Shown in pieces: positions 16,233 to 42,689 of a DNA stretch of 45,952 nucleotides (its first letter is position 1; each line of letters begins with the position of its first letter). The notes below the pieces were generated by a model that had not been told where the DNA came from, did not search any database, and saw nothing but the letters and a program-made list of their open reading frames with translations. Position numbers and translations under genes: made by a program. The DNA is from a bacterium (GTDB lineage: Bacteria; Zhuqueibacterota; Zhuqueibacteria; Zhuqueibacterales; Zhuqueibacteraceae): positions 1 through 45,952 of the forward strand of contig JBIOXB010000024.1 of the NCBI GenBank assembly GCA_044869275.1, in the 5' to 3' direction.

Positions 16233-16243
16233 AAGAAATATCA

Positions 16244-24851: not shown

Positions 24852-26714
24852 ATGCCGATGAATATTCCCTTATTCGAACACTTGCGTGCCAATCTCCTCG
24901 TTGCCGACGGCGCCATGGGCACGATGATTTACGGCCGCGGCATTCCGCTCTCCCAAAGCTTTGACCAGCTCAACCTCGAACAGCCGGATTTGATCCGTAA
25001 CATTCATCGCGCCTACGTGGAAGCCGGGTCACAGGCGATTGAAACCAACAGCTTCACCGCGAACCGGCATCGCCTGGCGCGTTTTGGCCTGGAAAAAAGC
25101 GTGCGCGCCATCAATCATGCGGCGGTGCAACTTGCCAAAGAAGCGGCGGAGGGAAAAGCGTATGTGCTGGCTTCAATTGGTCCGTTGCGCGATCGTGCGG
25201 GCGACGAAATGGAGGCGGCCTACTATCGCGAAGTATTTGCGGAACAGATTGCGGCGCTGGCGGAGAGCGAACCCGATGCCTTGATTTTCGAAACTTTCAC
25301 GTATGTTTCGGATTTGGAGATGGCGATCGAGCAAGCGCGCCGGCTCACGGCTTTGCCCATCATTGCACAGATGGTGACCGATGAAGAAGGCGTCACCCGC
25401 GACAGCCGCCACATCAGTTTCGTTTTCCGGCAATTGCGCGAACAGGGCGCGCACCTGGTGGGCATCAACTGTGCCAAGGGCCCGGCGGGGATTCTTTCCG
25501 CGCTGCGCGAAGTGCCTTTGGAAGAAGGTTTGCTGCTCTCCGCTTTTCCCAACGCTGGCTTGCCGGCATTCGTCGATGGCCGCTACATTTATCTGTCCAC
25601 GCCGGAATATTTTGCCGAGAGCGCGCTGAAGTTGCGCGACCAAGGCGTGCGCTTGATCGGTGGCTGCTGCGGCACCACGCCCGAGCACATTCGCGCCATG
25701 GCCGAGGCTTTGCGGGGTTTGCAGCCGGTGACCACGAAAACGGTGACGGTTCGCCCGGCGCCGGCAGCGCCGTCTTTGACGCCGGCAGCCACTCCGGATT
25801 TTTTGAAGAAAGTGAAAAAACAACCTACGATCATCGTGGAATTGGACCCGCCTCGGGATTTGACCATCGAGCCGATTCTGCATGGCGCGCGAGAGTTAAA
25901 ACGTGCAGGCATCGATGCGCTCACCATGGCCGATAGCTCACTCGGCATCACGCGCATGAGCAATATGGCCCTCGGCCATGTGGTCACGCAAAAGTCCGGG
26001 CTGCCGATGATCATCCATTTGGCTTGCCGCGACCGCAATTTGGTGGGGCTGCAATCGGAATTGATGGGCCTGCACGCGCTGGGCTTGCATACGGTTCTGG
26101 CGCTCACGGGCGACCCGGCCAAATTTGGCGACCAACCCGGCGCAACGTCGGTCTATGATCTCAATTCTTTCGGACTGATCGAAATGATCAAGCGCATGAA
26201 TCAGGGCATTTCATTTTCCGGGCGCGCGATGAAGCAGGGCACGAGCTTCGTGGTGGGCGCGGCGTTCAATCCGAATGTCGATCGCATCGAAACACAGGTG
26301 CGCCGCTTGCATCGCAAAGTTGAGGCGGGCGCGGATTTTGTGATGACGCAGCCGCTGTTCGATTGGCGCCAAGCCCGGGAAGTTTATGAGGCCACGCGTG
26401 AATTCGATCTTCCGATCTTCGTGGGAATTATGCCGCTGACCAGCGGCCGGAACGCGGATTTTCTTCACAACGAAGTGCCCGGCATTCAAATTCCGGAAAA
26501 AGTACGGCAACGCTTGTATCGCTTCGAAGGCGACCGCGCACGCCGCGAGGGGGTGACCATTGCCGCTGAAATTTTGGAGAGTGTGCTCGATTACTTCAAT
26601 GGCATTTACCTGATCACGCCGTTCGTGCGCTACGAGATGTGCGTGGAGCTCGTGGAAATTTGCCAGCGCGTGGCGAGGAGAAACTTGCGCAAGGCGGCAG
26701 AAGCCGCTCTATGA
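24852..26714 (+). CDS. yitJ: Bifunctional homocysteine S-methyltransferase / methylenetetrahydrofolate reductase
   Basis: DGAMGT, GINC, PNAGLP, GGCCGTTPEHI, then ELDPP, CRDRN, LTGDP, MTQP. Confidence 0.92.
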   Translation: MPMNIPLFEHLRANLLVADGAMGTMIYGRGIPLSQSFDQLNLEQPDLIRNIHRAYVEAGSQAIETNSFTANRHRLARFGLEKSVRAINHAAVQLAKEAAEGKAYVLASIGPLRDRAGDEMEAAYYREVFAEQIAALAESEPDALIFETFTYVSDLEMAIEQARRLTALPIIAQMVTDEEGVTRDSRHISFVFRQLREQGAHLVGINCAKGPAGILSALREVPLEEGLLLSAFPNAGLPAFVDGRYIYLSTPEYFAESALKLRDQGVRLIGGCCGTTPEHIRAMAEALRGLQPVTTKTVTVRPAPAAPSLTPAATPDFLKKVKKQPTIIVELDPPRDLTIEPILHGARELKRAGIDALTMADSSLGITRMSNMALGHVVTQKSGLPMIIHLACRDRNLVGLQSELMGLHALGLHTVLALTGDPAKFGDQPGATSVYDLNSFGLIEMIKRMNQGISFSGRAMKQGTSFVVGAAFNPNVDRIETQVRRLHRKVEAGADFVMTQPLFDWRQAREVYEATREFDLPIFVGIMPLTSGRNADFLHNEVPGIQIPEKVRQRLYRFEGDRARREGVTIAAEILESVLDYFNGIYLITPFVRYEMCVELVEICQRVARRNLRKAAEAAL

Positions 26715-26722: not shown

Positions 26723-27976
26723 TCATCTCGCCTGTTCCTGCGTCAGCACGAAGTCCCCAAAGCCGAGGGGATCGACAAAGAGGAATTGGCGGTGCAGCTT
26801 GTGATAACGCCAAAGCTGGCGGCGCTGCAGGCGCGGCAGATCGCTATCCACTTCAATCGCGTCCGGCATGCCGAGTTGGATGAAGATCTTTCCGGGGTCC
26901 GTTTTCCAGCCCTCGCGGCTCCCGCCGAACTTTTCATTGGCATATTCCACGCGTTGATAAAACGCCGCCATCGCTTCATTTTTCGACGTCTCCGGTGAAT
27001 CATCGCGCTTGTTCCAGAAAGTGATCAGCGCCGCGCGCTGTGCCACCAAAGACGAATCGGCCACCAATTTCTCTATTGCTTTGCGCTCCGCGGCCTTCGC
27101 GATCAAACACGCTTGTGCCAGCGCTTGCTGCACGTGCATGCCGGTTTCAGGGACGCCATCCCAAGTCACATGAAATTTTTGTTTCGCGGCCTTTTTGGTT
27201 TTACCGTGTTGCACTTGCAACTCGAGCTCGTAGGCCCCGTACGCTAAATGGTCCGTCCAGATCGGCAGCACCACGCGCTCCAGTGGCGTCTGGCGCGGCC
27301 AGGGCCGTTGTTGATCCACCATGACTTTATTCTGCCGGTTGCGGATGATTTGCCGCACCTGCAGAGGCGTGCCATTCGCAGGCGCGTCGATTTCCAGATA
27401 GAAATACAAATCCTGGCCCGGCGCCGCGGCGTTTTGAAAGAACGCCGGCGCAATGACGGGTTTGCCCGTGCTGTCGGTTTCGATTTGATTCGTGATGATA
27501 ATGTCGCTCAGGGCGAGCGTTGGGTCCTGGGCCGAAAAATCCTGCAAAACCTTTTCACCTGAAAAGCTTTCTTGCCGGCCACTCGCGGCATCGGTCACGG
27601 TGACCGTTGCCGTGTATTTCCCAGGCGATAAATCGAATTCAAAAGCATCGAAATAAAGCCTCTGGCGTGAGTTCGTCTCGCCGTAATCATTGGCGTGCAA
27701 TTGTTTTTGTATCTCGCGTTCTGCCACCCCAAAACCGTCCCGGTCGATAATCGCAATACTGACGCCGAATCGAGCCTCATATGTATCACCGGATTTGACA
27801 AAACTCAGAGCATCAACCGGCAAGCCCAGCAGAAGGATCAAACGGCTTTTATCCGCCTCCTGCGCCGAAACATTGATCAATTCGCATTGAAAGAAAGCGT
27901 GGGAATTGCCGGGGTTGGTGCGGGGTGCTGCTGCGAGAGAAGCGCACAAGAAAAACAATGCAATAAGAGCTTTCAT
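26723..27976 (-). CDS. GWxTD-domain exported protein
   Basis: Signal peptide; FWNKRDDSPET..NE....FYQRVEYANEKF....GWKTDPGKIFIQLGMPD. Start re-called at 27976 (GGAG upstream). Confidence 0.88.
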   Translation of the reverse strand: MKALIALFFLCASLAAAPRTNPGNSHAFFQCELINVSAQEADKSRLILLLGLPVDALSFVKSGDTYEARFGVSIAIIDRDGFGVAEREIQKQLHANDYGETNSRQRLYFDAFEFDLSPGKYTATVTVTDAASGRQESFSGEKVLQDFSAQDPTLALSDIIITNQIETDSTGKPVIAPAFFQNAAAPGQDLYFYLEIDAPANGTPLQVRQIIRNRQNKVMVDQQRPWPRQTPLERVVLPIWTDHLAYGAYELELQVQHGKTKKAAKQKFHVTWDGVPETGMHVQQALAQACLIAKAAERKAIEKLVADSSLVAQRAALITFWNKRDDSPETSKNEAMAAFYQRVEYANEKFGGSREGWKTDPGKIFIQLGMPDAIEVDSDLPRLQRRQLWRYHKLHRQFLFVDPLGFGDFVLTQEQAR

Positions 27977-28203
27977 GTTCCGACTCCTTCGGAAAATCAT
28001 CCTAAAAGCGCCCAGGCGGGCCAAAATCCTTTTAATAGTAATACGGTCATCATGGCTCATCTGCCGAAGGCCGGTGCTGGTCATTTTCGCCTTGCGAATC
28101 CTCTTGCGATTCCATAGTTTCCTGACAAGTTGAGATTTACCCGGCCTTTGCTTGAATATCGCTGCCGCCTTTTGCAGAATCTTAATATTGATTGGACGAG
28201 CGA

Positions 28204-30537
28204 ATGAGTGCCTCGCCTCGCTATGGTTTGGTCGCCGCGTGCTTCCTGGTTTTGATCACGTTTGCGACTGTTGCCTCCCCCGCAAGGCCTTCGCCGCCCG
28301 CCCGGGCCTCGGGGAATGATGTTGAGGTTGATAGCCTGGTAGCGAAAGGCAAGCGCTTGTTCGCACAATACCGCCTCGAAGAAGCCTACAAAACGTTTGA
28401 AAGAGCCCACCGTCTCGACCGGCGCGCGCGTGAGGTTTTGCTGGGTTTGGGAAAAATCGAAGTGGCAAGGGGCAAGTGGGGCAAAGCGGACAATCGTTTT
28501 GCAGACGTGCTCAAGCTCGACAAGAACGATCTGGAAGCCAATTATTATCGCGGCATTTGTTATCGCGAGAACGGCAAATATAAAGTCCTGTTGCTGCGCA
28601 AATGGGATTTCGACAATGCGGAAGAAAGGTTCAACGCCGTGCTCGCGCGGGATTCCCTGTTTCTCGATACGATGTATCAACTGGCCGTTTTGGAGCGGTA
28701 TCGCGGCCATTATGAAAAGGCGATTGCCGCCGGCCACACGGCGCTACGCCTGCGACCCGAGCTTTCCAGCTCCCTGACCGGATTGTTCCGGTTGTATCGT
28801 TTTTACATCGACAACACCGGACATGACGAAGCAGTCAAATGGTTGCAAGCGCGATCTTCGCCCTACGCCCTATATGCGCTGGGCGAGACCTATCGATTGC
28901 AGCGCGACTTTGTCAATGCGGATTCCATTTTTCGTGCATTAATGCGGGATGAAGTCGTGATGAACAAACAGCGCGTGCGGCTCTCTCGCGCACGAATCTA
29001 TTACGACCAGGGTGCGCCTGTTGCCGGGCAGGGGCTCTTTGCGAATGCCGTTGACGCCATCTCTTCCAATGCCGACGCCGATTTGATTTTTGAAGATGTC
29101 AAATACATTCTCAGCGATGAAGAGTTGCTGCAGTATCACCAATTACGGGAGCCCGGCCAGTTTCAAGATTTTTTCCGTAAGCTATGGAACCGCCGCGATC
29201 CCACGCCGGCAGCGAGCGCCAACGTGCGCCTGACCGAGCATTATCGCCGGCTGAGTTATGCCGAACAGCACTACGCCTTCGACGGCTTTCGCGTCCATTT
29301 CAACAATCCGGACAAGCTGAATTATCTGAAATATCCCGAGGTTTACTCGCTCAATCAAGAGTTCAACGACAAAGGCTTGATCTATTTGCGCCACGGCCCG
29401 CCGGACGACACGGCGTTGAATGTCGGCGCCAACAGCATTCCCAATGAGTCCTGGCGATATTTCAAATCCTCTGCCAGCGCAGAGTTGGTTTTTCACTTCG
29501 TGATCGACGAGGGCGCGACCGGCAACAACTGGCGGCTTACGCCGTTGCTCAACGATCCCGCCATGCTGGAGGCGCGGTTGAGCTGGGGCACGGTCTATTA
29601 TCGCATGCTGACGGCTACACCGACGGAGCGCATGGCCGTGGAGCAAGACATGATTTCCGTTAGCACGAAGTCCGTCGAGATCGGCTTTGAGACCGATCGC
29701 CACACCTGGTCGAAGAATACCGCGCCGCTGGCAGCTTCGTTTTACACCGCCATTTTCAATGGCGACTCCGGCAATGATGTCTTGGAGCTTTATTATGCCA
29801 TTCCCATCAAAGAATTGGCACGCGACCGCGAGCAACAAGGCGCCGACGCAATTTTGGAAAAAGGCATGGTGGTGCGCGATCGGAATTACAAGGAAGTCCA
29901 GCGCAGCGACCGCCAGGTCAAGCTCACGCTCGCCTCGCATCCGCAAATCGTGAACGGGCTGTTTATCGATGCCTATCGCGTGAGTGCGCCGCCGGATTCT
30001 TACTTCGTCGCGTTTCATGCGCGCCAAATCGATGTCACTCCCAGCCGCCTCGCCGGTTACAACGGCGACATTCATTTGCCGGATTTCAATGGGGGCAAAT
30101 TGACCTTGAGCGATTTGGTGCTGGCGTTCGAAATCGAGCCGGCCAGCGGAACCGGCGTGTTTATGAAGAACGGCTTGAAGATCGTGCCGAATCCGTACAA
30201 GAGCTTCGACCGCCGGAGACCAGTGATGTTGTATTTCGAGGTGTATCACCTCAAGCCCGATGAGAAGGGCAAAACCGCGTTCACGATCGATTACACCGTG
30301 CAGATGCTGGAGAAGAAGAAGAGTGCAATCGGCAGGCTTGGCGGTGTGTTCGGCGGCGGCAGCAAATCCAAAGTCTCGCTTTCGGCTGAGCGTGAGGGTG
30401 ATACACCAACGGCGATCGAACAGATCGGCCTGGATTTGAGCAAGGCGGAGGCCGGGGAGTTCGAGTTGACGGTGACGGTGAAGGATCGAAATACAAAGAG
30501 CGAGGCCAAATCGAGGAGCACGCTGACTTTGAATTGA
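28204..30537 (+). CDS. TPR-repeat protein with a variant GWxTD domain
   Basis: Signal peptide, N-terminal TPRs, LWNRRDPTPA..N..EHYRRLSYA...DKGLIYLRHGPPD..ESWRY, C-terminal Ig-like LSDLVLA..YFEVY region. Confidence 0.85.
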   Translation: MSASPRYGLVAACFLVLITFATVASPARPSPPARASGNDVEVDSLVAKGKRLFAQYRLEEAYKTFERAHRLDRRAREVLLGLGKIEVARGKWGKADNRFADVLKLDKNDLEANYYRGICYRENGKYKVLLLRKWDFDNAEERFNAVLARDSLFLDTMYQLAVLERYRGHYEKAIAAGHTALRLRPELSSSLTGLFRLYRFYIDNTGHDEAVKWLQARSSPYALYALGETYRLQRDFVNADSIFRALMRDEVVMNKQRVRLSRARIYYDQGAPVAGQGLFANAVDAISSNADADLIFEDVKYILSDEELLQYHQLREPGQFQDFFRKLWNRRDPTPAASANVRLTEHYRRLSYAEQHYAFDGFRVHFNNPDKLNYLKYPEVYSLNQEFNDKGLIYLRHGPPDDTALNVGANSIPNESWRYFKSSASAELVFHFVIDEGATGNNWRLTPLLNDPAMLEARLSWGTVYYRMLTATPTERMAVEQDMISVSTKSVEIGFETDRHTWSKNTAPLAASFYTAIFNGDSGNDVLELYYAIPIKELARDREQQGADAILEKGMVVRDRNYKEVQRSDRQVKLTLASHPQIVNGLFIDAYRVSAPPDSYFVAFHARQIDVTPSRLAGYNGDIHLPDFNGGKLTLSDLVLAFEIEPASGTGVFMKNGLKIVPNPYKSFDRRRPVMLYFEVYHLKPDEKGKTAFTIDYTVQMLEKKKSAIGRLGGVFGGGSKSKVSLSAEREGDTPTAIEQIGLDLSKAEAGEFELTVTVKDRNTKSEAKSRSTLTLN

Positions 30538-30578
30538 GGAGTGTTTCAGTTTCTGCCAAACCCCAAGCGCATGGCAGC

Positions 30579-30639
30579 TCACAAAAACAGAACTCCCACG
30601 GAATGAAATGCTGTTTCCGTGGGAGTTCTATTTTTGTGA
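30579..30639. terminator. Long bidirectional terminator hairpin
   Basis: TCACAAAAACAGAACTCCCACGGAA pairs with TTCCGTGGGAGTTCTATTTTTGTGA (one mismatch) between convergent genes. Confidence 0.85.
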
Positions 30640-30710
30640 TGCAGTTCAGGCCGTGCGGCCGGTTTTTTCACCAGACATTCGCTTGCGTCTCATGAAAAAG
30701 CAGCGCTCGC

Positions 30711-31991
30711 TCAACTCGCGGTTTGGCGCACGAGGATAAAACGCCCGTCGCCGTGTTCGTCATAGAAGATGAACTCGCGCGTGGGATTTTCATAGCGCCA
30801 GATCTCGAGGCTGCGCCCATAGCTCTGATCGAAACGCCGCGAGATGTTGTCGGGCTGGCCGTGAATAATGTAGATTCTGCCGCGATCGGTTTCCCACCCA
30901 TCGGTTTTACCCCAGGAAAACTGGCTGTTGGCTTCGCTGACGCGCCAGTAGAACTCCTCCTCCAGCAGATTCGTTTTCGATTCCGGCGTTGGGTTGCGTC
31001 TCTTCCAGAATGCGGTCAGTAGCTCCCGCTGTGCTTCGGGCGAGGCGTTTTTTAGCTCTTTCCAATCTCTCGAGTCCATGATCAGCCGCATGGGCTGAAT
31101 GTAATCCGCCAGTGCGCGCTTGGAGGTGGGGCGCTGCGCCCAGCGCACCATCAATGTACGGCTCGCGTCCACTGTGGTTTCATTGGAATAGACGAGCATC
31201 TTGAGCTCTTGGCGGCCCAGCCCGAGCTGCGTCGGGGGAATTGGGAAAAACAAATTGACCGTCGGCGTGTAGGCAATAGTGTCGATGCTGGCCTGCGCGG
31301 TATTCGCTTCTTCCTGGCTGCCCACGGAGAGGCTGGCGCGAATGCGCTGCCCGACGCCGACGTTGCGTGCTTGGGCAAAGGCATAAATCGTATCGCTAAA
31401 GCGCTGCCGGAATGAAGGCACGATTTGTTCCGCGTCGGGAAAGCCGCGCGGCACTTCATCCAGAATCAAGATATCGCTCAACACCAGCGCGGTGCCGCTC
31501 AGGTCGCGCACATTCAGCGGAAAGGTAAAGTATCCATGCCCTTTGGCGACGTCGTCCGTTATCGTTGTCTCTAATACATACTGGCCGGGAGGCGGCGTCT
31601 CCATGAATTTTGCCACGCGCACGTAAAGCGATTCCGGCTGCGTGCTCTGATACGTGTCGACCGTCAGCCGCCGCTCGTCATCCACCAATTGCATCATTTC
31701 CCCTTTTTGATTGCGCAGGGCGAGCGTGAGGTTGAAACGGGCGGCGAACTTGTTGTCAGCGCGTTCGAACTGCAGACTGCGATGCGGGACGTCCACGATC
31801 ACCCACACGCGATTATGGTTGGTGTCATCCACGATATTTACGGCCTGGACGCCAAAGCGAATAACGCCTTGGCTCGCGCCGCTCCCGGACCGGCTCTGAG
31901 GCCGCTGGCTGCCGGCGCACCCCAGCAGGACAAGTGCCGAAATAACAAACCCGGCTGCGCAGCATGTGCACGATGAGATCTTGCGTGTCAT
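30711..31991 (-). CDS. GWxTD-domain lipoprotein
   Basis: Lipobox LLGC; FWKRRNPTP..N...EFYWRV..AN..F....GWETDRGRIYIIHGQPD..EIWRY. Confidence 0.9.
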   Translation of the reverse strand: MTRKISSCTCCAAGFVISALVLLGCAGSQRPQSRSGSGASQGVIRFGVQAVNIVDDTNHNRVWVIVDVPHRSLQFERADNKFAARFNLTLALRNQKGEMMQLVDDERRLTVDTYQSTQPESLYVRVAKFMETPPPGQYVLETTITDDVAKGHGYFTFPLNVRDLSGTALVLSDILILDEVPRGFPDAEQIVPSFRQRFSDTIYAFAQARNVGVGQRIRASLSVGSQEEANTAQASIDTIAYTPTVNLFFPIPPTQLGLGRQELKMLVYSNETTVDASRTLMVRWAQRPTSKRALADYIQPMRLIMDSRDWKELKNASPEAQRELLTAFWKRRNPTPESKTNLLEEEFYWRVSEANSQFSWGKTDGWETDRGRIYIIHGQPDNISRRFDQSYGRSLEIWRYENPTREFIFYDEHGDGRFILVRQTAS

Positions 31992-32003
31992 AAGGAAGCC
32001 TTC

Positions 32004-35000
32004 TTAAAAGTCGGTCCCGAGCGAGACCAAATATCTCGGTTTGGAAAAGTATTGCATATCCGTTCGCCAGGCGGCGTCGATGCGCAACAAGCCAATGGGG
32101 CTGTAGAAGCGAATGCCCCAGCCGACGCTGGTCAGGATGTCATCGGTCACACGTTCGCCCTTGCTGTTGCGGGTAAAAGCGCGAAAACCGCCGGTTTCAT
32201 CCCAAGCGCTGCCGGCATCAAAGAACAAAGCACCGCGCACGCCCTGGAAGAGCAAGGGTAACGGCGCTTGCAGCACCAAAAATTGAATAAAAGGAAAGCG
32301 AATCTCGCCGTTCACCAGGAAATAGCGCGTTCCGATTTTTTCATAATAGTCTGTGCCGCGCAGCGGATAGACGAACTGGCTGTAGGTGAGATCGCCGATT
32401 TCGTTGAGGCTCAAATTTTGGGCGAACTGGGCATCGATCCAGTTCTCCAGGCCGCCGAGAATGAATTTTTGCGGCTGTTCGCCGAAGCTGGCGCCGCCGG
32501 TGAAACGCAATGCCACACTCCATTCCCGGCCTAACGGCTGATAGGCACGCCAGTCCAGGGTCAAGCTGCTGAACTCATGCGGGTTATGGCCAACACCGGG
32601 GCTGAAAGCCGCTTGGATGATGCTGCGCCTGGCATCGACCGGGCCGAAGTATCCCCAGCGGGTGTTATCGCGCACCAGGCCCAAGGTGAAAATGGCGGCG
32701 TGCTCTTTCGATACCGGAAACTCGTAGGTCAGATTGTCGCGATAGGTGGCGAGGAGTATCGCCGAGGTTTCCAATCGTACGAAGCGCGAGAACGGATACT
32801 GCACGCTGCCGATCAAATTCAAGTAGCGGAACCGTTCGATACTGCCGAAGAAATCGGAGAGAAAGAATCTCACCTGCTGTCCCATGGCGAAATAGAAATT
32901 GGGCCGCGAGCCCAAATAGCCGTAGCTCAAAGAAAAGTCGCTGTTCGCCAGCGAGCGATTGAGATATGCACCGATGCCGATTTGATGGTTGCCGGTCAAA
33001 TCCGAGAGATAAAGCTGCCCGAGGCCCTGTATGCCGAAGAACGGGTCGTAGCCGCTGACCGCGCCCACGTAATCCACGCTGAATTTCGGCCGGTACGATT
33101 TAATCACGTAGCTCCCGTCTTCGGCCAGATGATTGGAAGGGCTGAAAGGGTTGCTGCCATTCGTGGCGCGGCTGGCTCCGCCGTTGTCGAAATCCGCTTC
33201 CCCGCGGCTGAAATCTTGGTCGAAAACGAAACTGCGGAAATTCCGTCCCTCAGTTTCGCTGTCGCTTTTGCGGGCCAGTTGCGGTGCAGCCGACGAGTCA
33301 CTGTGCTGCGGCGCGCGATTCTGCATGAAATTGGTGAGTTCCAGCGCTTTGTGTTGGCCCAGGTTGGCGAGGGGTGAGCGCCAGAGATAGACGTCGTACC
33401 CGCCGCGATAAAATGAAGTGAAGGCCAGGCGCTGCCCGCCGCGCGAAATCGACAAGTGCTGCACGCCCACCATCAAATCCGTCAAAGCTACTTCGTCGCC
33501 GGTGGACAATACGCGCAGATATATATTCGAGATGCCGTTGCGATCTGAAACGAAGAGCAGGCTGTCCGCGCTGTGATAGAATTCCGGCGAGTTTTCATTC
33601 GAATCCCATGGCGTAATCCGTTCCAGCTCGCTGCCGTCGGGCCGGACGCGGTAAAGATCATTGTTGCGATTACTATGCTCCCAAATCGGACGACCGCCCT
33701 CCGCCAGTGCGCCACGGTCGGAAACGAAGACCAATGTTTTCGCATCCGGCGACCAGCACGGCTCAAACTCCGAATACGCATCGTTGGTGACTTGCGTCAG
33801 CTCGCGCGAATCTGTTTCGACGACATAGATATCGCTTTGGCAATTCTTCATGCCGGAGAAAGCGATCTTCTTGCCATCGGGCGACCACGAAGGATTCCAC
33901 AACCCTTGCATGTCGAAGGTGTACGTGCGAATAATTCTCTTGCGCCGCACGTCGGCAACGTGCAGCACGTCCTGCCAGCCGCTTTTGGCGGAGAAAGCGA
34001 TCAAGCGATTGTCCGGCGACCAGGTGATGCCCGGGCGCAGCCACTGCAATTCCTCGATGCCCGAGCCTTTTTGCCCGCCCACGATACGGCCAAGGTTGCG
34101 GCCATCGACCGCGTTGACGAGATAGATGTCGAACAATCCGGACCGATCGGTGAGATAAGCGATCAATGAGCCGTCAGGAGAAAGCGCCGGGCTGTTGTTG
34201 ATGAAATTTTCGGTTTTGCGGTGATCCGTCAAAGCCGTGGCAATATCCGTGGGCGCTTTGCGCTTTGCAAACTCGGGCCAATACCATTCTTTGACCGAGC
34301 GATGCCATTGCTCGGTGATGACTTCGGGCTTCTCGCCCAGCGCGCGCATAAATGCGGCCTGGAAATTCCGTGTCGTGCGCAATTCCTGCAACAGCTCCGT
34401 GACCTTGGCGCGGCCATAGCGGCGCTCGACCCAATAGTAGAAGTTCTGTCCGCCTTTGTAAGCGAAGAAGCCGTAGAGTTGTTCGACCGGGGGCAGGTAG
34501 TTATTGATCACCGCGTCACGAATGAAATTATCCGCCTCGGTCTCCCAGTGCATGGATTCATATTCCGCCAGGCCTTCGTTCATCCACAGCGGAATCTGAA
34601 AATTGGTGATGCCGCGCAGCACGGAGCCGGGCCCGGCGCCATAAAAATACTGCAAAATGACCGCGTGCGTCAATTCGTGGTGCACGACATGGCGATACTG
34701 CTCGTTCGAGCCGTCGTAGGGCAGCACCACGCGGCCTTTGAAAAACTCCGTGAACCCGCCCACCGATTCTTCCTGGATATCGGGCGTGACGTTGGTTTCC
34801 TCGAAGTCATTATGCGAGTTGTAAATCAGAATTGGAATGCGCGCCAGCAACTCGAATTGCAGCGTTCTTTTCAAGCCGGTCAAGGATGACTCGGCGACCG
34901 CGGCGGTGAAATTGGCCGCATTTTCGCCGCCCTTGTAGAAATAGATGTCGAAGTGCTGGGACTGGATATAGCGCCAGCTCTTTCGTTCATATTGGATTTT

Positions 35001-35075
35001 GTTTTTGCCGAAGCTCTGGGCCCAAAGCGCTGCAGGAATCAGCAAAAGCGCGAGAGCGACAATGAATTTGCGCAT
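32004..35075 (-). CDS. Omp85/BamA-family barrel fused to an N-terminal zincin (peptidase MA-like) domain and PD40/TolB-like propeller
   Basis: QSFGKNKIQY, HHELTH + WMNEGLAEY, repeated WSPD, PLRG barrel motif, terminal GTDF. Start re-called at 35075. Confidence 0.9.
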   Translation of the reverse strand: MRKFIVALALLLIPAALWAQSFGKNKIQYERKSWRYIQSQHFDIYFYKGGENAANFTAAVAESSLTGLKRTLQFELLARIPILIYNSHNDFEETNVTPDIQEESVGGFTEFFKGRVVLPYDGSNEQYRHVVHHELTHAVILQYFYGAGPGSVLRGITNFQIPLWMNEGLAEYESMHWETEADNFIRDAVINNYLPPVEQLYGFFAYKGGQNFYYWVERRYGRAKVTELLQELRTTRNFQAAFMRALGEKPEVITEQWHRSVKEWYWPEFAKRKAPTDIATALTDHRKTENFINNSPALSPDGSLIAYLTDRSGLFDIYLVNAVDGRNLGRIVGGQKGSGIEELQWLRPGITWSPDNRLIAFSAKSGWQDVLHVADVRRKRIIRTYTFDMQGLWNPSWSPDGKKIAFSGMKNCQSDIYVVETDSRELTQVTNDAYSEFEPCWSPDAKTLVFVSDRGALAEGGRPIWEHSNRNNDLYRVRPDGSELERITPWDSNENSPEFYHSADSLLFVSDRNGISNIYLRVLSTGDEVALTDLMVGVQHLSISRGGQRLAFTSFYRGGYDVYLWRSPLANLGQHKALELTNFMQNRAPQHSDSSAAPQLARKSDSETEGRNFRSFVFDQDFSRGEADFDNGGASRATNGSNPFSPSNHLAEDGSYVIKSYRPKFSVDYVGAVSGYDPFFGIQGLGQLYLSDLTGNHQIGIGAYLNRSLANSDFSLSYGYLGSRPNFYFAMGQQVRFFLSDFFGSIERFRYLNLIGSVQYPFSRFVRLETSAILLATYRDNLTYEFPVSKEHAAIFTLGLVRDNTRWGYFGPVDARRSIIQAAFSPGVGHNPHEFSSLTLDWRAYQPLGREWSVALRFTGGASFGEQPQKFILGGLENWIDAQFAQNLSLNEIGDLTYSQFVYPLRGTDYYEKIGTRYFLVNGEIRFPFIQFLVLQAPLPLLFQGVRGALFFDAGSAWDETGGFRAFTRNSKGERVTDDILTSVGWGIRFYSPIGLLRIDAAWRTDMQYFSKPRYLVSLGTDF

Positions 35076-35122
35076 AACAATGCCTCGAGGCATAAGAATG
35101 AATGATGGAGTGATTAACAACA

Positions 35123-35187
35123 TTACGCTTTACACGTTACACTTTACACGTTTAACGTGTAAGGTGTAACGTGTAACGTGTAACGCG
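35123..35187. repeat. Heptamer array with inverted copy: (TTACACG)x4 / (TAACGTG)x5
   Basis: ttacgct ttacacg ttacact ttacacg tt taacgtg taaggtg taacgtg taacgtg taacgcg. Confidence 0.85.
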
Positions 35188-35192
35188 AGAGT

Positions 35193-37325
35193 TTATTGCG
35201 CCAGCATCTTTTGGCCGGCGCCGCTGGACAAGCCGATGAGATCGCTCAGGATGCGCGTGCTTTCATCCAGGACTAAGTCTGGCTGCTTCTGATTTTCCGG
35301 CACTGCTTCGCCTTTCTTGAGCGGCTTCAACCCACGCGCCACCCGGCGCTCGTTCTCACGGGCGAAGCGCTGCTCTTCCGCCTGTTCGCGTTCCTGCCGG
35401 CGTGCTGTTTCATTCAGCGAAACCTGCGTGCGCTCATTTTCTTTTTTGATGCGCTCGATATCCTCGTCCAGGAAACGAAATTCCAGATTCAGCGCCCTGC
35501 GCTTTTGAGACTTGTCGCGCAGCGACGGAAGAAATTGCCCGAGGCGGCCCTTGGGAGAATAAGCTGCCGCTTTAATCTCGTCCCACGGCAGCGCGTTGAC
35601 TTCCGCGCTTTCGCCGAAGTCTTGGTCGTCCCAAATCGAAGGGAAGGAAAGATCGGGAATCACGCCGCGGTGTTGCGTAGTGCCGCCGGCAACGCGATAG
35701 AACTTGGCAACCGTGAGCTTCAATTGCCCGAGCCGGGCCTCGCTGCTGGGCACGAACCGGTCAAGGTCGATCAAATTTTGCACCGTGCCCTTGCCGAACG
35801 TCTGGCTGCCGATGATCACGCCGCGGCCGTAATCTTGAATCGCCGCGGCAAAAATTTCTGAAGCCGAGGCGCTGCGGCGATTGACCAGCACCGCCATCGG
35901 GCCGTCATATTCGAGTGCGGGATCGGGATCTTGCATGACTTTGACCGAGCCGTCGTTGTTGCGCACTTGCACCACCGGACCTTTGTCGATGAACAAACCC
36001 GTGAGCTCGACGGCCTCCTGCAGCGAACCGCCGCTGTCGCCCCGCAAATCGATGAGTAACCCGTCGATTTTCGCGCCTTTCAATTCGCGGATCAGACGGC
36101 GCACGTCGCGTGTGGTGCTCTTATAATCCTGGTCCCCGCGATTCTGTGCCGCGAGATCGGAATAAAACGTCGGAATCAAGATCACGCCCAGCGTGAATTT
36201 CCGCCCTTCGTACATGAAGGTGAGCGTGTCGCTGCGCGCCTCGCCCTCTTTCAACACGACTTTGTCGCGCACCAGCGCCACCCTTTTTGGAATGGTGCCC
36301 GGGGGCGAGTTTGCGGGGAGAACGTCCAGACGCACCGTGGAGCCCTTTTGGCCGCGAATCATCTGCACGACGTCGTCCAGGCGCATGCCCACCACGTCGG
36401 CCATCTCGCCGCCCTCGCCCTGGCCCACCGCCACGATTTTATCGTTCGCCCAGAGCTGTTTGCTCAGATCCGCCGGTCCGCCGGGAATGATGCGCGCCAC
36501 CATGGTATAGTAGTCCGCTTCCGTGGTCAATTGCGCACCGATGCCCTCCAGCGACAGGCTCATGTCGATGCCAAAGTTTTGCGAAGCAATGGGTGAAAGA
36601 TAGTTGGTGTGCGGGTCGAACACCTGCGAGAGCGCATTCATATACGCCTGAAACACGTCTTCGGAGGTATTCTGGCCGATGCGTTTTTGATAATTGGCAT
36701 AGCGCTTCGTCAAGCTGGCGGTCACGTTTTCGGGAGGCTTGTTGCCCGCGTCCGGCGCCGCGCTGTTGAGTTTGAGGTTCAAAGCCTCGTGCTTCAAGCG
36801 TTTGCGCCATCTTTCGTTGAGCTCGGCGGGAGTTTTGGCCCAAGGGGTGTTCTCTTTTTCGATTTCATAAAACTCATTTACGGTGAAATCGAAGCCCTGC
36901 GCGATGGTGGTTTGCACGTAGGCGCTGCGCTCGTCGAAACGTTTTTTGAAAAGGTTGTAGATTTCATAAGCCGGCGCCAGGTCCCCGCGCTGCAGATAAT
37001 CATCCAACTGGTAACGGTATTTGGCAAAGCCTATGACGTCCGCTTCGAGGAAGATGCTGCGATAAGGATCCAGTGCATCGATGTAAAAATTCAAAAAATC
37101 CTCGGAAGTGGAATCGTCGATCGCTTTGTGGCTATAGTGGTAGTGTGTGAACAGGCCGGCAATCACCCGGCTGACCACGGGATGTTGCTTGTCAGGCGCA
37201 AGATCGCTCGCCGGAGCGGCCGCAAAAGTAAAGAGCAAAAACAGCGCGCTGGGCAGAAAAAATCTGCCGCGGTTGTCGAGGCGAGTTGAGCTGTCCGCAG
37301 AGAAAAGTTTCATGAGTGTATTCAA
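35193..37325 (-). CDS. prc: Carboxy-terminal processing (tail-specific) protease, S41; start uncertain (37313 is an alternative)
   Basis: DPHTNY, LEGIGA (PDZ), DLRG..GGSL, SASASEIF, FGKGTVQ, KFYRV. Confidence 0.93.
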   Translation of the reverse strand: MNTLMKLFSADSSTRLDNRGRFFLPSALFLLFTFAAAPASDLAPDKQHPVVSRVIAGLFTHYHYSHKAIDDSTSEDFLNFYIDALDPYRSIFLEADVIGFAKYRYQLDDYLQRGDLAPAYEIYNLFKKRFDERSAYVQTTIAQGFDFTVNEFYEIEKENTPWAKTPAELNERWRKRLKHEALNLKLNSAAPDAGNKPPENVTASLTKRYANYQKRIGQNTSEDVFQAYMNALSQVFDPHTNYLSPIASQNFGIDMSLSLEGIGAQLTTEADYYTMVARIIPGGPADLSKQLWANDKIVAVGQGEGGEMADVVGMRLDDVVQMIRGQKGSTVRLDVLPANSPPGTIPKRVALVRDKVVLKEGEARSDTLTFMYEGRKFTLGVILIPTFYSDLAAQNRGDQDYKSTTRDVRRLIRELKGAKIDGLLIDLRGDSGGSLQEAVELTGLFIDKGPVVQVRNNDGSVKVMQDPDPALEYDGPMAVLVNRRSASASEIFAAAIQDYGRGVIIGSQTFGKGTVQNLIDLDRFVPSSEARLGQLKLTVAKFYRVAGGTTQHRGVIPDLSFPSIWDDQDFGESAEVNALPWDEIKAAAYSPKGRLGQFLPSLRDKSQKRRALNLEFRFLDEDIERIKKENERTQVSLNETARRQEREQAEEQRFARENERRVARGLKPLKKGEAVPENQKQPDLVLDESTRILSDLIGLSSGAGQKMLAQ

Positions 37326-37432
37326 CCTTAAATCAAAAAAAAGTGAGTATGAAGAAACCGATATTTATTCATGTGGCTGCATGCCCGGAGTGGCGACAAG
37401 CGAAAATACAAGCCTCCCGGCAAAAGTTCAAG

Positions 37433-37762
37433 TCATTCTTCACCAGCCGAACGTGCGGCTCTTTCGAGCTTTTGACGCAGGCGTGCTTCATCTATTTCGT
37501 ACTTGCATGCCAACTGGCCATTTACCCGCACCAACGGAATGCGAGTGCCGAACTCCGCCAGCAACTCCTCGTCGCCGGCAATGTTCACTTCGCGCAGCTC
37601 GAATCCCCATTGCCTTTGCAGCCGATGCAAATGCCTCTTCGCGGCCTCGCACAGGTGACAATCGGGCTTGCTGATGAGTTCGATCACGCTGCCGCGTCCG
37701 ATTTTCGCGGGGACGAGGCGGTCTTGCACCGCCCGCCGAGCCCGGCGCAGGCTCCCCATCAA
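37433..37762 (-). CDS. Glutaredoxin-like protein (DUF836 type)
   Basis: SKPDCHLC, EVNI, RIPLV; 4-nt overlap with the upstream gene. Confidence 0.85.
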   Translation of the reverse strand: MMGSLRRARRAVQDRLVPAKIGRGSVIELISKPDCHLCEAAKRHLHRLQRQWGFELREVNIAGDEELLAEFGTRIPLVRVNGQLACKYEIDEARLRQKLERAARSAGEE

Positions 37763-38328
37763 CCTTTGCGATTTTTCATGAAGTCTTCGAACTTCATGGT
37801 TTTGTAATGGCCCTCGGACAGGAATTCCAAGATCGGCAGAAACTGATCCGGCTTCAAATATCCGGAAACAGAGGTGAGCAATTCACCGTTTTCATTGATG
37901 AAAATCGTGGCCGGATAGCCGCGTACGCCGAAGCTGACCGCCAATTGCTGGTAGCTCAATTCGTTTTCTTTATAGCGCGTCATCTGCTGCGATTCGGCGT
38001 TGACTTTCGACATCACCAGCTTCTTGCGCGCATATTTGACGACCTCGGGGTGGCCATAGGTGTCCTGATCCATTTTCTTGCACCAGCCGCACCAGTCCGT
38101 ATAAAAATCCACGACCACTATTTTGCGCTCTTTTTTCGCCGCTGCCACGGCCTTGTCAAAATCCAGCCATTGAATCGCAGTGCTTTTGCTCTTTTCCTGG
38201 GAATAGGCCACGCTGGTGATGATCAGGCCCAAAGCCAGAACCAAACCGTGAGCGCGGTCGAAGCCGGGGATGGTGCAAAAGAAGTGTGATCGACAATAGC
38301 GATTGCGCATGAAAGTCTCCGAGATCAT
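37759..38328 (-). CDS. Exported thioredoxin-family protein (SoxW/DUF255-like)
   Basis: DFYTDWCGWCKKM, GVRGYP, signal-like segment; 4-nt overlap with porU. Confidence 0.88.
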   Translation of the reverse strand: MISETFMRNRYCRSHFFCTIPGFDRAHGLVLALGLIITSVAYSQEKSKSTAIQWLDFDKAVAAAKKERKIVVVDFYTDWCGWCKKMDQDTYGHPEVVKYARKKLVMSKVNAESQQMTRYKENELSYQQLAVSFGVRGYPATIFINENGELLTSVSGYLKPDQFLPILEFLSEGHYKTMKFEDFMKNRKG

Positions 38329-41300
38329 CGTTGAATTACCAATTTGCCGATTTCTTCCGAAAGTAGGGTTTCACCGTTTTCGGAGGAAGCGCGGCGAGCG
38401 CTGATTTTATAGAGATAAACCCCGTTTGCCGGGCGATCGCCATCGGCGTCCAGCCCGTCCCATGGCACCATGTTAAACCCTGCCAGCACCTCGGTTGGTT
38501 CCATTTCCAGTTTGCGAATGAGACGGCCGGCGATGGTGTAAATCTTGATTTCGACTTCGGCGTTCGGCTGATTCAATTCAAAGGTAAAAGAAGTATGGTT
38601 GCGCAGCGGATTGGGATAATTCATCACGTTGAAGAGCTGCAGCTGGTCTTGCGCCACCATCACAAACTCCGCCGAGGCAGTGTTTGAGTTATTGAAATTG
38701 TCCCAGGCTTTCACCTCCACTGTGTGCCGGCCCTCAGAAAGATTTCCCAGCACGTAACGCAAGCTCCCGCGCGTGTAACTGCCGGAGTTGTAGCTGAACA
38801 AATCGGTTACGTCGAGTTTGCCGGCGGAATTGCCGTCCAGTTCCAGCGTAATGTTGTGCCCAATCTCCCCAGCAAGGTTGATGCCTGAAAGCGTGTCATG
38901 AAGGATCACTTCGAGCACGGGATTGAGCCCGACATACCCGCCACTGGTGAAGCCCGTCGCTCCGGCAAAACCGATCTGAATCTCCGGCCCTTGTTGGTCC
39001 ACCAGGCTCGTGTTGGTGCTGCCAATTTTCAAGTTCGCACGGTAGCCGTTGCCGTCGGTGGAATCGTTCCAAAAATAAGCTGCCAACCGGCCGCGGCTCG
39101 CGCCGTAGGTGATATCCTTGGGCGCGATGAATTGCACTTCAAATTGGCCGTTCACCACCGGTGCCTCGCCACGGAAAATGGAATTGCCGGGCAGATCGTA
39201 ATTGATGGTAATGCCGGCATTGCGATAATCCACGCGGCGTTCGGTATCGAATGCTTCCAGGCGGACCTGGCCGTTGAAGTTTGCCGCCAACTGGCCGTCT
39301 CGTTTCACCACGCCCCGTACGCGCGTGACTGCCAGCGCTTTGAGCGTATCCGGCGAGGTCAATTCCGTGGTGTAACGCGGAATCGCCAGGCGCATGCTGG
39401 GATCGCCGTAGAGATGGAATTTTTCATCATTGACGGTGCTGAAATTACCCGTTTGGGCGCGCGCCCGCATATGGGCAATTCCCAGGGGAGTGGAAATCTG
39501 GCCATTGCTGAACAGATTCTGAAATAAAGCTTGGTTGAGAGCCGCATTATAATTGGAAAAAACATCGCGTGTGGTCGCAAAGACGGCAACAGCGCCTCTT
39601 TGCGGCAAGAGCAAAAGCTGCTCGGCAAAACTCTGGCGTTCCGGCATGTCGAACTTGCCGAACGTGCAGGTCGCAGCCACCCATAAGGCCTGGCGGTCGC
39701 CGTTTTGGATGCGGTCCAAATCCGTGGAGAGCTCGAGCACGCGCTCGTGTGTCCAGACATTGGGATTGCCATGGCCGGTGTAATTGACCAGCAGGGCGCC
39801 ACTGTTGAGCAATCGCAACAGTGTTTCCGTGGCCGCAGGCTTGCGGATGCCCGAGATCGAAGCGCTTTGCACCGCGGGGAATTCGGTGAGATAGACTTTC
39901 TTGATGTCGAAATACGCCGGCGTTCTGAGATCGACCAGCTCTTCGGTATCCACGATATGCACTGTTTCAATTGACAGTGGCACACCGCCGGCATAGTTCT
40001 CGTCGTCGGCGACCATGACGACGGTATTGCGCCACGGGCCGAAGTCCGGCGCGGTTTCATACTTGATGAGCTTATCCATGTATGCCTGGGCCTCGGTCAA
40101 GCTGCGCACAGGCAGACGGCCGATCGCCATGTCCATGGTATAATCCCCGTCACCGCCCACGAGATAGGTGAACCAGCTATCGGTGACACGATAGTTTTCG
40201 GCCTCGGAATTATAGTCTTCGGTATGATAGGTTGGAATCCAGTTCTTGTCAGTTTTGACGAGAATGTTTTTGGGGTCGTAATCGCCGTCGCCGAAGAGTA
40301 CGACGTACGTTGGCCGGGTCTGCCAGTTCGCATAGGCGTATAGCAAAAAATCGCGAATGGCCACGGGATCGTACATGCCGCAGGAGAATTCGTCGAACAC
40401 GTCTTGAATGTTAACGACTTCGACCGCCATCCTTTGGTTGGAATCACCGTTGTGCCAGTTTTCGCGCAGGCTTTCCAAGCGCTGCGCCTGCGAGACGAAA
40501 TCATCGTGGGTGATCACGATCATATCCGCGGCGTTTTGAGACGAGCGTAAACTGGAGGGTGAATCGCGCTCGATTTGGGCCGCATCAACATTGGCAAAAG
40601 CCGCGCTGGTGGCAGCCAGATAACGCCGGGGCACGCGCGGGTGGGCCGCATCGGCAAAAGTGATCTGCGCGCCGTTGAGCTGCCAGTTGTCAGCGCTCAG
40701 CCTGGAGACGTTGCTGAAGTCGCTGACTTCGAACAGCCAGAAATCTTGCGAATTGACGTTGTCCAAGCGATAAGCGACCGGGGTGGAGCTGCGGCGGCCG
40801 TCAAAAAGCAAGAGCGGGCCTGGCATGCGCAAGTGACGCTCGTATTTGAACTCGAAATAATCCATGTACAGCCGTGCTACGTCACCAGCACCGCTGTAGA
40901 TCAGCTGAATCTCATTTTCACCGTTTCTGCTCACGCCACGCAGCGGCACATCTCGTGGCTGTGTTCTGGTACTAATGCCGGAATAGGTGAATTCGCCCAA
41001 ATCCTGGCCGTTGAAAGAGATCGACAACCCATGTGATGGGCCAAAAACGCCGCTGACAGCAGGCGCGTAGACCACAAGTTTCAAAGAATCCGTCACTTCA
41101 GTCACCGGATCAGTCAACTGAATGCGATAGCGGCGCGTATTGATGTTGCCAGCATTGGTGAAAAGATGGCCAAGCCAGGTCTGATCCGATTCCAGCCAAA
41201 CATTGGATTCTTCTTCCACAAACAGCTTGTCCTGGAAGGAGGTGGTGGCAGTGAGACCCGCCGGAGGAATAGTCGCCCTCAAATTCATGCGTTTGGCCGG

Positions 41301-42410
41301 AGGTGCGCCGGGGATGGGATCGACGGCAATCCAATAATAATTATTGAAGCCAAAGTGATTAAGGTAATGCCGCGACGCGCCGTTGGTGGAATCAAACGCA
41401 AAGCCTTCCACGCCGCGGCCATAAAACAAAATGAAATCATTGGCATCGAGACGGCCGTCGCCGCCGTCAGAAACGTAAATTGCGTTTTCAACCAACCCCT
41501 CAGGCGCAGGACGGGGCACGCGGAGCAAACGCGGCAATTCACGGCCGCCGTTATTGTAGAGGCGAATCTCGCTTGCAGAAATAGCGCCCGACACTTTCGA
41601 CGCGAGCGCTTGGCCGGTGATGCGATAAATGCCTTCCTTAGTGATCGGGAATTTGTAAAGCGGAACTTCGGCAAACGGTGAACTGATCTTCTTCAGGGCA
41701 GGCGAGGTTTCCGTGCGGAATGCCCGAGCTGCCGAATAATTCAGAATCATGCTGCGATAGAGAGACTCCTCGATCTCCGAGTCCACTCGAGGTGCCGCCA
41801 CGGCCACCCGGCCGCCGCTATGGCGCACGACGATGCGCGCTTCGTGCACAATGCGCAAGACCTTGGTCACTGGATTATACTGCAGGGGAGAAAACTGCAC
41901 ACGCAGAATGGTTTGCTGGCGAAATTGCGCAGGTGGATCGACTGCCACCTGAGTGGCGGGCTGGAAAGCATTTTGGCTGAAGGTTCTTTCATCCCTGCTA
42001 TATATAGGAAGAAAAGAATCGCCCTCTTTTTGGAATTCCGGCACGGGCGCAATCTCGATATTCTGGATCTCCTCAAGTCGCAGGGGCAGTATTGTAGCCT
42101 CAACCTGCGCTCCGGCAGGCACGCCAATCACGAAGCTGCGCCTCGGCAGGTTGGGAGCACCCTTTTCGGCCAATGACAGGCCGTTTTCAAAAAGAGGGGC
42201 CAGCAGTACCTGGTTCAATGCCGAGCCGGATGGCAGTGTATCCAATTTGAAGCGGCTGAGTTTGAAGTCGATGATCGTTTGTTGTGCTGTAGATTGATAT
42301 AGTTTCAAATCGCTATCAGACGCGGGAAGGGACTGGGCGTGCACGAAACCGAAAACAATTATTGGAAGAAAAGGTATGGTTCTCATTAAAAAACAAAGAG
42401 GAGAAAGCAT
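38325..42410 (-). CDS. porU: Type IX secretion sortase PorU (C25 gingipain-like)
   Basis: C25 propeptide, DEFS.G..DPVAIRDF, FGDGDYD, IGRLP, YTGHG and ATC catalytic dyad, KAWD..NNS, FlgD-type CTD. Confidence 0.92.
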   Translation of the reverse strand: MLSPLCFLMRTIPFLPIIVFGFVHAQSLPASDSDLKLYQSTAQQTIIDFKLSRFKLDTLPSGSALNQVLLAPLFENGLSLAEKGAPNLPRRSFVIGVPAGAQVEATILPLRLEEIQNIEIAPVPEFQKEGDSFLPIYSRDERTFSQNAFQPATQVAVDPPAQFRQQTILRVQFSPLQYNPVTKVLRIVHEARIVVRHSGGRVAVAAPRVDSEIEESLYRSMILNYSAARAFRTETSPALKKISSPFAEVPLYKFPITKEGIYRITGQALASKVSGAISASEIRLYNNGGRELPRLLRVPRPAPEGLVENAIYVSDGGDGRLDANDFILFYGRGVEGFAFDSTNGASRHYLNHFGFNNYYWIAVDPIPGAPPAKRMNLRATIPPAGLTATTSFQDKLFVEEESNVWLESDQTWLGHLFTNAGNINTRRYRIQLTDPVTEVTDSLKLVVYAPAVSGVFGPSHGLSISFNGQDLGEFTYSGISTRTQPRDVPLRGVSRNGENEIQLIYSGAGDVARLYMDYFEFKYERHLRMPGPLLLFDGRRSSTPVAYRLDNVNSQDFWLFEVSDFSNVSRLSADNWQLNGAQITFADAAHPRVPRRYLAATSAAFANVDAAQIERDSPSSLRSSQNAADMIVITHDDFVSQAQRLESLRENWHNGDSNQRMAVEVVNIQDVFDEFSCGMYDPVAIRDFLLYAYANWQTRPTYVVLFGDGDYDPKNILVKTDKNWIPTYHTEDYNSEAENYRVTDSWFTYLVGGDGDYTMDMAIGRLPVRSLTEAQAYMDKLIKYETAPDFGPWRNTVVMVADDENYAGGVPLSIETVHIVDTEELVDLRTPAYFDIKKVYLTEFPAVQSASISGIRKPAATETLLRLLNSGALLVNYTGHGNPNVWTHERVLELSTDLDRIQNGDRQALWVAATCTFGKFDMPERQSFAEQLLLLPQRGAVAVFATTRDVFSNYNAALNQALFQNLFSNGQISTPLGIAHMRARAQTGNFSTVNDEKFHLYGDPSMRLAIPRYTTELTSPDTLKALAVTRVRGVVKRDGQLAANFNGQVRLEAFDTERRVDYRNAGITINYDLPGNSIFRGEAPVVNGQFEVQFIAPKDITYGASRGRLAAYFWNDSTDGNGYRANLKIGSTNTSLVDQQGPEIQIGFAGATGFTSGGYVGLNPVLEVILHDTLSGINLAGEIGHNITLELDGNSAGKLDVTDLFSYNSGSYTRGSLRYVLGNLSEGRHTVEVKAWDNFNNSNTASAEFVMVAQDQLQLFNVMNYPNPLRNHTSFTFELNQPNAEVEIKIYTIAGRLIRKLEMEPTEVLAGFNMVPWDGLDADGDRPANGVYLYKISARRASSENGETLLSEEIGKLVIQR

Positions 42411-42427
42411 GTCTAAGTACCTAGCGG

Positions 42428-42613
42428 TTATTCAGATTCTTCAGTGTTCTTATCATTTTCAGCCTGAAGAGAATAAACGGTCACCAAGATGATGAAAGTA
42501 TAGCCGGCGAGCAGTGGCCAGCGGATATCTTCTCGCTGCGTTAATTCAAATCCAATGCCGAACAAGCTGATGGCGATATAAAGCCAGCGTCGAGGGGTTT
42601 TCCCGAAGTTCAT
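42428..42613 (-). CDS. Small two-TM hypothetical protein (61 aa)
   Basis: MNFGKTPRRW followed by two hydrophobic segments and an acidic tail, directly upstream of porU. Confidence 0.55.
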   Translation of the reverse strand: MNFGKTPRRWLYIAISLFGIGFELTQREDIRWPLLAGYTFIILVTVYSLQAENDKNTEESE

Positions 42614-42689
42614 TAAAAGAGTGACCGAAAATAAACCAGAGGTGTGTGAAATGCACCGAAAACCTATGAAAATAAACAAAATTCAACGT

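Follow-up and report, generated by a model that had tools for sequence, protein, structure and literature searches.

An Omp85 fusion and a GWxTD lipoprotein form a conserved gene pair within a local cluster of envelope genes

The 45,952-nucleotide (nt) contig JBIOXB010000024.1 of GenBank assembly GCA_044869275.1 (the window), from a bacterium of the family Zhuqueibacteraceae, carries a 16-kb run of nine genes, including those for the T9SS (type IX secretion system) sortase PorU, the tail-specific protease Prc, two thiol redoxins, a fusion of a zinc protease (zincin), a PD40 propeller and an Omp85 barrel, and three proteins of the GWxTD family (gw1, gw2 and gw3). An earlier note, made from the sequence alone, had proposed that the GWxTD proteins are periplasmic partners of the fusion in a single pathway tied to a divergent T9SS. 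Our comparisons support a tight and ancient linkage of one GWxTD gene, gw1, to the gene of the POTRA-less Omp85 fusion. This pair is the only old association within the run, and the larger cluster is local. A class-wide fusion–GWxTD pair with co-duplication was not found in the literature and appears to be new.

The conserved fusion–GWxTD pair

The two genes of the pair are located as follows:

32004..35075, minus strand: zincin-PD40-Omp85 fusion of the WD40-Omp85 type, core of the conserved pair (Pfam/NCBIfam)
30711..31991, minus strand: GWxTD lipoprotein gw1, 426 amino acids, second gene of the conserved pair (TIGR04514, lipobox, AlphaFold2 model)

The host genome is 94% complete, and comparisons within its order cover 21 genomes including the host. 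The survey of the pair in the order comprised 38 loci, namely 37 fusion loci from 20 relatives and the second copy of the host. At 34 of them the fusion is immediately followed by a GWxTD gene; two loci lack this arrangement and two were scored as cut, one of which (L053) shows other genes after the fusion. Outside the order, 60 of the 70 matches were taken, leaving out three from the class and seven from other classes. In the rest of the class the GWxTD gene directly follows the fusion at 18 of 30 loci and is one gene apart at 10, with one locus lacking it and one cut; the host's class as a whole thus has adjacent genes at 52 of 68 loci and genes separated by a single gene at 10 more. A homologue of homocysteine methyltransferase/methylenetetrahydrofolate reductase (MTHFR) lies between the two genes in 10 class loci. 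In other classes a GWxTD gene adjoins the fusion at 3 of 30 loci. Other classes of the candidate division KSB1 also show an unassigned 177-amino-acid lipoprotein gene upstream of the fusion at 20 loci, with DsbD/CcdA downstream (L144-L149, L154, L160, L166-L182, L187-L193), which may represent another set of partners and a thiol-redox connection that recurs.

The phylogenetic trees of the fusion and of its GWxTD partner contain matching clades A and B, the GWxTD clades comprising 24 and 42 sequences with support of 0.96 and 1.0. The pair has therefore been duplicated and has stayed a unit at identities of about 41% and 23%. The genes flanking the pair differ between families. A lipobox is present in 17 of 23 clade-A GWxTD partners versus 2 of 42 in clade B. 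At 13 loci of the order an unassigned 130-amino-acid membrane protein is encoded after the clade-B pair (L063:4886-5284 and relatives).

The fusion comprises 1023 amino acids from its likely start (the longest open reading frame, ORF, starts at 35123) and consists of a signal peptide, a HExxH...E zinc protease, a TolB-like propeller, and a C-terminal barrel ending in Phe. It matches PF01103 (Omp85) with 55.1 bits against a cut-off of 24, with an invariant P-x-R-G-type motif, and PD40 with 91.9 bits; its best sequence matches in the PDB are TolB chains (E 1e-15). No POTRA family match was found in Pfam, as the earlier note had it. The score for Peptidase_MA_2 (28.4 bits) is below the cut-off of 32.4; the HExxH motif and two downstream Glu residues are invariant in all 65 aligned homologues, and, judged from the sequence, the zinc ligands are intact. 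The fusion is not BamA (TIGR03303, 34.8 bits versus a cut-off of 297), and the canonical BamA of the host is encoded by another gene (470 bits). Its closest named relatives, with 67% identity, come from KSB1, and at least six zincin-PD40 fusion paralogues are present in the host genome. The protein is predicted to belong to WD40-Omp85, a subfamily of the Omp85/TpsB superfamily that was catalogued in 2014 without a function, according to the consulted part of Heinz and Lithgow (PMC4104836).

The gw1 protein, whose closest named relatives (62% identity) are also from KSB1, carries a lipobox at Cys25, two Ig-like beta-sandwiches, and a C-terminal GWxTD domain. In the AlphaFold2 model (predicted local distance difference test score 90.4) the two Ig-like domains are followed by a domain without a clear structural match. 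Its resemblance to BamE/BLIP in the predicted structure is weak. At the sequence level, none of 50 subdomains matches PF04355 (BamE/SmpA), and hhalign gave a probability of 0.6% against a shallow enterobacterial alignment.

The surrounding run and the secretion genes of the host

The remaining features of the run are:

42428..42613, minus strand: small membrane protein without an assigned family, 61 amino acids from ATG (ORF, partial conservation 5' of porU)
38325..42410, minus strand: PorU, T9SS sortase (NF033707, His/Cys motifs, C-terminal CTD-like domain, synteny)
37759..38328, minus strand: exported thioredoxin-like protein with CGWC, trx (Pfam, motif, synteny)
37433..37762, minus strand: glutaredoxin-like protein, DUF836, without a signal peptide, grx (Pfam)
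35193..37325, minus strand: tail-specific protease Prc/Tsp, closing the porU block (TIGR00225, synteny)
30589..30629, no strand: inverted repeat of 15 bp around an 11-nt loop, putative two-way terminator (read from the sequence)
28192..30537, plus strand: TPR-GWxTD-like protein gw2, 781 amino acids, exported, with a degenerate motif (Pfam/NCBIfam)
26723..27976, minus strand: exported GWxTD paralogue gw3, 417 amino acids from the likely start (Pfam/NCBIfam)

The nine ORFs lie where the earlier note had placed them, and Pfam and NCBIfam bear out its assignments of PorU, thioredoxin, glutaredoxin, Prc, the Omp85 fusion, and three GWxTD proteins. The 4-nt overlaps and the 12-nt gap that it gave hold for the longest ORFs, which show 17 nt between the small gene and porU, overlaps of 4 nt at porU-trx and trx-grx, then 107 nt to prc, 69 nt to the fusion, and 12 nt between the fusion and gw1. 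The two overlaps, however, depend on the choice of start: that of trx and grx shrinks to 1 nt if an ATG one codon further in is used, and that of porU and trx is lost in the four relatives with the same gene order, where 15 to about 470 nt separate the two genes. The small membrane protein, with an alternative of 83 amino acids from a TTG at 42679, is kept upstream of porU by some members of the family. The glutaredoxin-like protein is probably cytoplasmic, since it has no hydrophobic N-terminal segment. The hairpin lies between the convergent genes gw1 and gw2 and, with an A run on its 5' side and a T run on its 3' side, is likely to act as their two-way terminator; a hairpin scan restricted to loops of up to 8 nt does not report it.

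Both PorU and Prc are typical of their respective families. PorU scores 849 bits for NF033707 (cut-off 420) and 25.5 bits for TIGR04183 (the C-terminal domain, CTD), and has both the His/Cys dyad motifs and the CTD-like domain of a sortase; Prc scores 286 bits for TIGR00225 (cut-off 218.6). PorU was detected in 20 of 21 genomes and adjoins the fusion in five of these 20, which belong to two genera. The thioredoxin gene directly follows porU in 13/13 genomes of the family and in none of the seven of the sister family, and in genus g3 the porU block including prc is located away from the fusion; porU-trx-grx is thus a family-level block separable from the fusion. In genus g2, porU is tandemly duplicated in three genomes (L367, L368, L370, L380, L381, L383). 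A gw2 orthologue with varied neighbours occurs in 20/21 genomes, being a core gene of the order, and all 21 have a gw3 match, but both genes adjoin the fusion–gw1 pair only in the host and G001, i.e., in this genus. G019 and G059 also have TPR-type GWxTD genes close to the fusion. The 16-kb run is very probably a genus-level mosaic of four blocks, namely the small gene with porU-trx-grx-prc, the fusion–gw1 pair, gw2, and gw3.

Several observations concern the neighbourhood of these genes. The junction of prc and the fusion, where two blocks meet, holds a 7-nt unit repeated about five times and, after these repeats, inverted copies (35124-35192), an array that could form a hairpin. Upstream of the run lies an AT-rich 1-kb gap (42680-43715; GC 0.435 over 42-44 kb) with several predicted promoter-like sites, followed by an SLT lytic transglycosylase (43716-44462) beside a second Omp85-family barrel of 409 amino acids without an N-terminal domain match (44624-45853, minus strand). 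A bifunctional homocysteine methyltransferase/MTHFR gene (24846-26714, plus strand) converges on gw3, as it does in genus g3. Further away, genes for a TonB-dependent receptor, a 1057-amino-acid protein with a CTD-like tail, and a PorV-family barrel stand in a row (10262-17391, plus strand); this cassette recurs on host contigs C197, C142 and C222, there with a GWxTD gene.

The host genome (C63:12209-18439; C241:28800-31064) encodes SprA, outside the window, and PorZ, together with 20 PorV-family genes above the cut-off among 31 matches and at least 150 CTD matches (150 of 150 scored, from 223 candidates), so that the SprA translocon, PorV, PorZ and CTD cargo of a T9SS are all represented. The earlier note was thus right that sprA is absent from the window and that T9SS-type export is in play, but the gene is present elsewhere, and no specific tie of the Omp85–GWxTD pair to the T9SS was found. 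No match to GldL, GldM or GldN was obtained in the host, nor did any of 61 genomes from the phylum yield one to GldN; no control genome passed the cut-off in either search, and GldK was not searched. The host accordingly has T9SS-type export with no motor or ring detected, the absence itself not being established without a positive control.

GWxTD genes and their neighbours

All three GWxTD proteins of the window exceed the TIGR04514 cut-off of 28 bits (100.5, 87 and 48.4 bits, gw1 having the highest score). The GWxTD motif followed by W-x-Y is present in gw1 and gw3; gw2, which the earlier note had counted as a third GWxTD protein, keeps only W-x-Y, is below the Pfam GWxTD cut-off (22.7 versus 26.9 bits), and has FNDKG in place of the motif, as do 17 long orthologous or paralogous ORFs. 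It lies on the strand opposite to gw1, behind the hairpin. The longest ORF of gw3 starts at 28084, and the protein is 25% identical to gw1; in the tree gw3 stands as a separate clade, and it faces a methionine-synthesis gene in five genomes. Pairwise identities of 24-27% indicate that the three paralogues are old genes brought together rather than recent duplicates. The host genome has 12 GWxTD matches, and the location of three within 6 kb exceeds what random placement would give (P = 0.0005). A GWxTD gene elsewhere in the host (L113:7553-8817, contig C168) has an in-frame stop inside the domain match and looks broken or truncated.

The family is large, with 15,470 representatives at E ≤0.001 for a gw1 profile and 6-17 matches per genome within the order. 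No function is known to have been demonstrated for it, in line with the earlier note, and a literature search returned no relevant paper and no function. The linkage of GWxTD genes to different barrels in a clade-specific manner was likewise not found in the literature and appears to be new. In the phylum of the Rhodothermales genome G098, the domain occurs in 47 of 81 genomes, and a POTRA-bearing gene lies directly downstream at 10 of the 30 best loci, two of which were not displayed; nine of these ten neighbours show an Omp85 domain inside the fetched flank. An Ignavibacteriaceae genome has the order rimO-GWxTD-pfkB-Omp85, and its GWxTD protein groups with those of the G098 phylum on the tree. 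A same-strand barrel neighbour was seen in 30 of the 80 best among 605 metagenomic GWxTD loci: PorV-family proteins in 16 (all six checked exceed the NCBIfam cut-off), carboxypeptidase-regulatory-domain proteins in 10 (probable barrels, with a terminal Phe in 6 of 7 printed), and the zincin-PD40-Omp85 fusion in four. The comparison with the barrel background of the host (53 of 5017 genes) is rough, since these loci are related to one another, derive from other genomes, and served as seeds for the barrel profiles.

In the host itself, three GWxTD genes belong to the TonB receptor-cargo-PorV cassettes, and one lies two genes from a BamG-like barrel scoring under the cut-off. The latter locus (L117:6934-12904, contig C48) is one run of a lipoprotein, a BamG-like FadL barrel (76 bits versus 250), an unknown gene, and a TPR-GWxTD gene. 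Genes for RimO, LD-carboxypeptidase, MacB/FtsX permeases, and a lipid A acyltransferase also recur as neighbours. The best gw3 matches in genus g2 and family f2 belong to rimO-GWxTD-ldcA arrangements (11/11 loci shown); rimO-GWxTD(-ldcA) was also found at 15 of 30 loci in another set, and rimO-GWxTD in Calditrichaceae and Ignavibacteriaceae genomes. Nine of 80 gw1 matches are fusions with an M56 peptidase. Tandem GWxTD pairs, several of them behind MacB/FtsX permeases, are present in 11 of the 80 metagenomic loci (L254, L260, L265, L269, L272, L274, L275, L279, L304, L314, L321); together with the triple in the window, they hint that paralogues work together.

Proposed role and comparison with known systems

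We tentatively favour the reading that the pair encodes an accessory outer-membrane protease with a periplasmic GWxTD adaptor, rather than a part of the T9SS. The fusion would be an accessory Omp85 protein additional to the canonical BamA, its barrel anchoring a zinc protease, predicted to be active, and the TolB-like propeller on the periplasmic side of the outer membrane. The gw1 lipoprotein, tethered to the inner leaflet, could serve as the adaptor of the fusion, with the variable Ig-like domains giving partner specificity and the conserved GWxTD domain binding something common to all paralogues. The job may be the trimming or degradation of envelope proteins at the outer membrane, as if BAM (the beta-barrel assembly machinery) and BepA were joined in one chain, which is the least certain step; PorU, Prc and the redoxins would be co-located envelope housekeeping, not subunits. 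It is probable that the fusion and gw1 act in the same pathway, direct binding of gw1 to the fusion is plausible without being probable, and a quality-control role, proposed by analogy, is possible and rather doubtful.

Several results weigh against this reading. At 27 of the 30 other-class KSB1 loci the fusion has no GWxTD neighbour and is mostly followed by DsbD/CcdA; four of the at least six fusion paralogues of the host also lack one. All 38 genomes tested have GWxTD homologues, among them 12 genomes from family f3 that retain them with no fusion match at E 1e-180, and no GWxTD match was seen at 36 named fusion loci beyond close relatives, many of which are short. Among the metagenomic loci, 50 of 80 have no such barrel neighbour, the barrel profiles having been partly built from those loci. 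Finally, several phyla keep rimO next to a GWxTD gene although no functional link between the two is plausible, so that gene neighbourhoods of this family can be conserved passively. It is indeed conceivable, if rather unlikely, that the fusion and gw1 merely share an old envelope operon and do not work together, as the maintenance of rimO-GWxTD(-ldcA), the splitting of the pair by an unrelated methionine-synthesis gene in 10 class loci, and its dissolution in other classes would suggest. However, the pair was retained through a duplication and the deep divergence of both its copies, with all of its other neighbours being exchanged, and other GWxTD clades independently adjoin other barrels.

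A function in nutrient handling, with the barrel passing peptides or small proteins inward to a propeller-gated zincin and the GWxTD protein as an accessory of the import gate, seems improbable. The TonB receptor-cargo-PorV cassettes with GWxTD genes would fit it, and the number of fusion paralogues suggests specialisation, but the GWxTD proteins linked to PorV and gw1 fall into different clades, the pair has no TonB, transporter or catabolic gene as a constant neighbour, and we know of no inward transport by an Omp85 barrel. Very improbable is a self-exporting surface protease, in which the barrel translocates its own zincin-propeller passenger and gw1 is a periplasmic chaperone. This option was raised for enzyme-Omp85 fusions in the consulted part of Heinz and Lithgow (PMC4104836; compare the patatin-Omp85 PlpD), but the fusion has no POTRA match, its propeller is most like periplasmic TolB, and for surface export the genome offers SprA and the numerous CTD-bearing ORF matches. 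We give least credence to the single pathway of the earlier note, in which the three GWxTD proteins, the fusion, Prc, the redoxins, and PorU of a divergent T9SS act together, possibly replacing missing Gld parts. The same-strand run with short gaps, the clustering of GWxTD paralogues beyond chance, the T9SS outer-membrane parts without GldL/M/N matches, and the TPR-type genes of G019 and G059 that lie close to the fusion are consistent with it. The gene-order comparison nevertheless fails for most genes (the full order in 2/21 genomes, the porU link in 5/20), gw2 and gw3 belong to other transcription units by orientation, the M56-peptidase fusions place GWxTD in unrelated settings, and PorU acts at the cell surface according to the consulted part of PMC10202324.

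The pairing offers a first concrete functional lead for both the GWxTD family and WD40-Omp85; the larger 16-kb cluster, being local, matters little. A broader and distinctly speculative generalisation is that GWxTD proteins of the FCB group and Acidobacteriota form an unrecognised class of periplasmic adaptors that serve the assembly or quality control of outer-membrane barrels, one barrel type per paralogue (WD40-Omp85, 3-POTRA Omp85, PorV-family), combining Ig-like specificity with a BamE/BLIP-like subdomain set among new companion domains. If so, the window's pair would amount to a second Omp85 machine, armed with a protease, the family could help T9SS-type export in lineages for which neither a Gld motor nor a ring has been detected, and GWxTD proteins would constitute a new component class of outer-membrane biogenesis. 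BAM in these phyla already differs from that of E. coli, according to the consulted part of PMC12611786.

Among known systems, the GWxTD family (TIGR04514, PF20094) accommodates the three exported proteins of the window by the NCBIfam cut-off, to which our data add a model with the Ig-Ig-GWxTD order, barrel neighbours that differ by clade, and the degeneration of the motif in the TPR type. For a propeller combined with a lipoprotein, as in the fusion and gw1, the closest working analogy would be TolB-Pal. The likeness to the T9SS and PorQUZ attachment complex of Bacteroidota lies in PorU of the window and in SprA, PorZ, PorV-family and CTD proteins of the host genome, whereas no described part resembles the fusion or GWxTD, whose linkage to porU is local. 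The fusion shares with WD40-Omp85 a TolB-like propeller in place of POTRA, a C-terminal Omp85 barrel, and occurrence besides BamA; the consulted part of PMC4104836 mentions neither a zincin nor a partner gene for this subfamily, in contrast to the invariant zincin ligands and the GWxTD gene that follows the fusion across one KSB1 class. The closest functional analogy could be BAM-BepA, with a periplasmic zinc protease at an Omp85 barrel; BepA is an M48 protein of its own that is recruited to BamA (PMC8423444, PMC13478230, in the parts consulted), while the present fusion carries a different zincin joined to a non-BamA, POTRA-less barrel.

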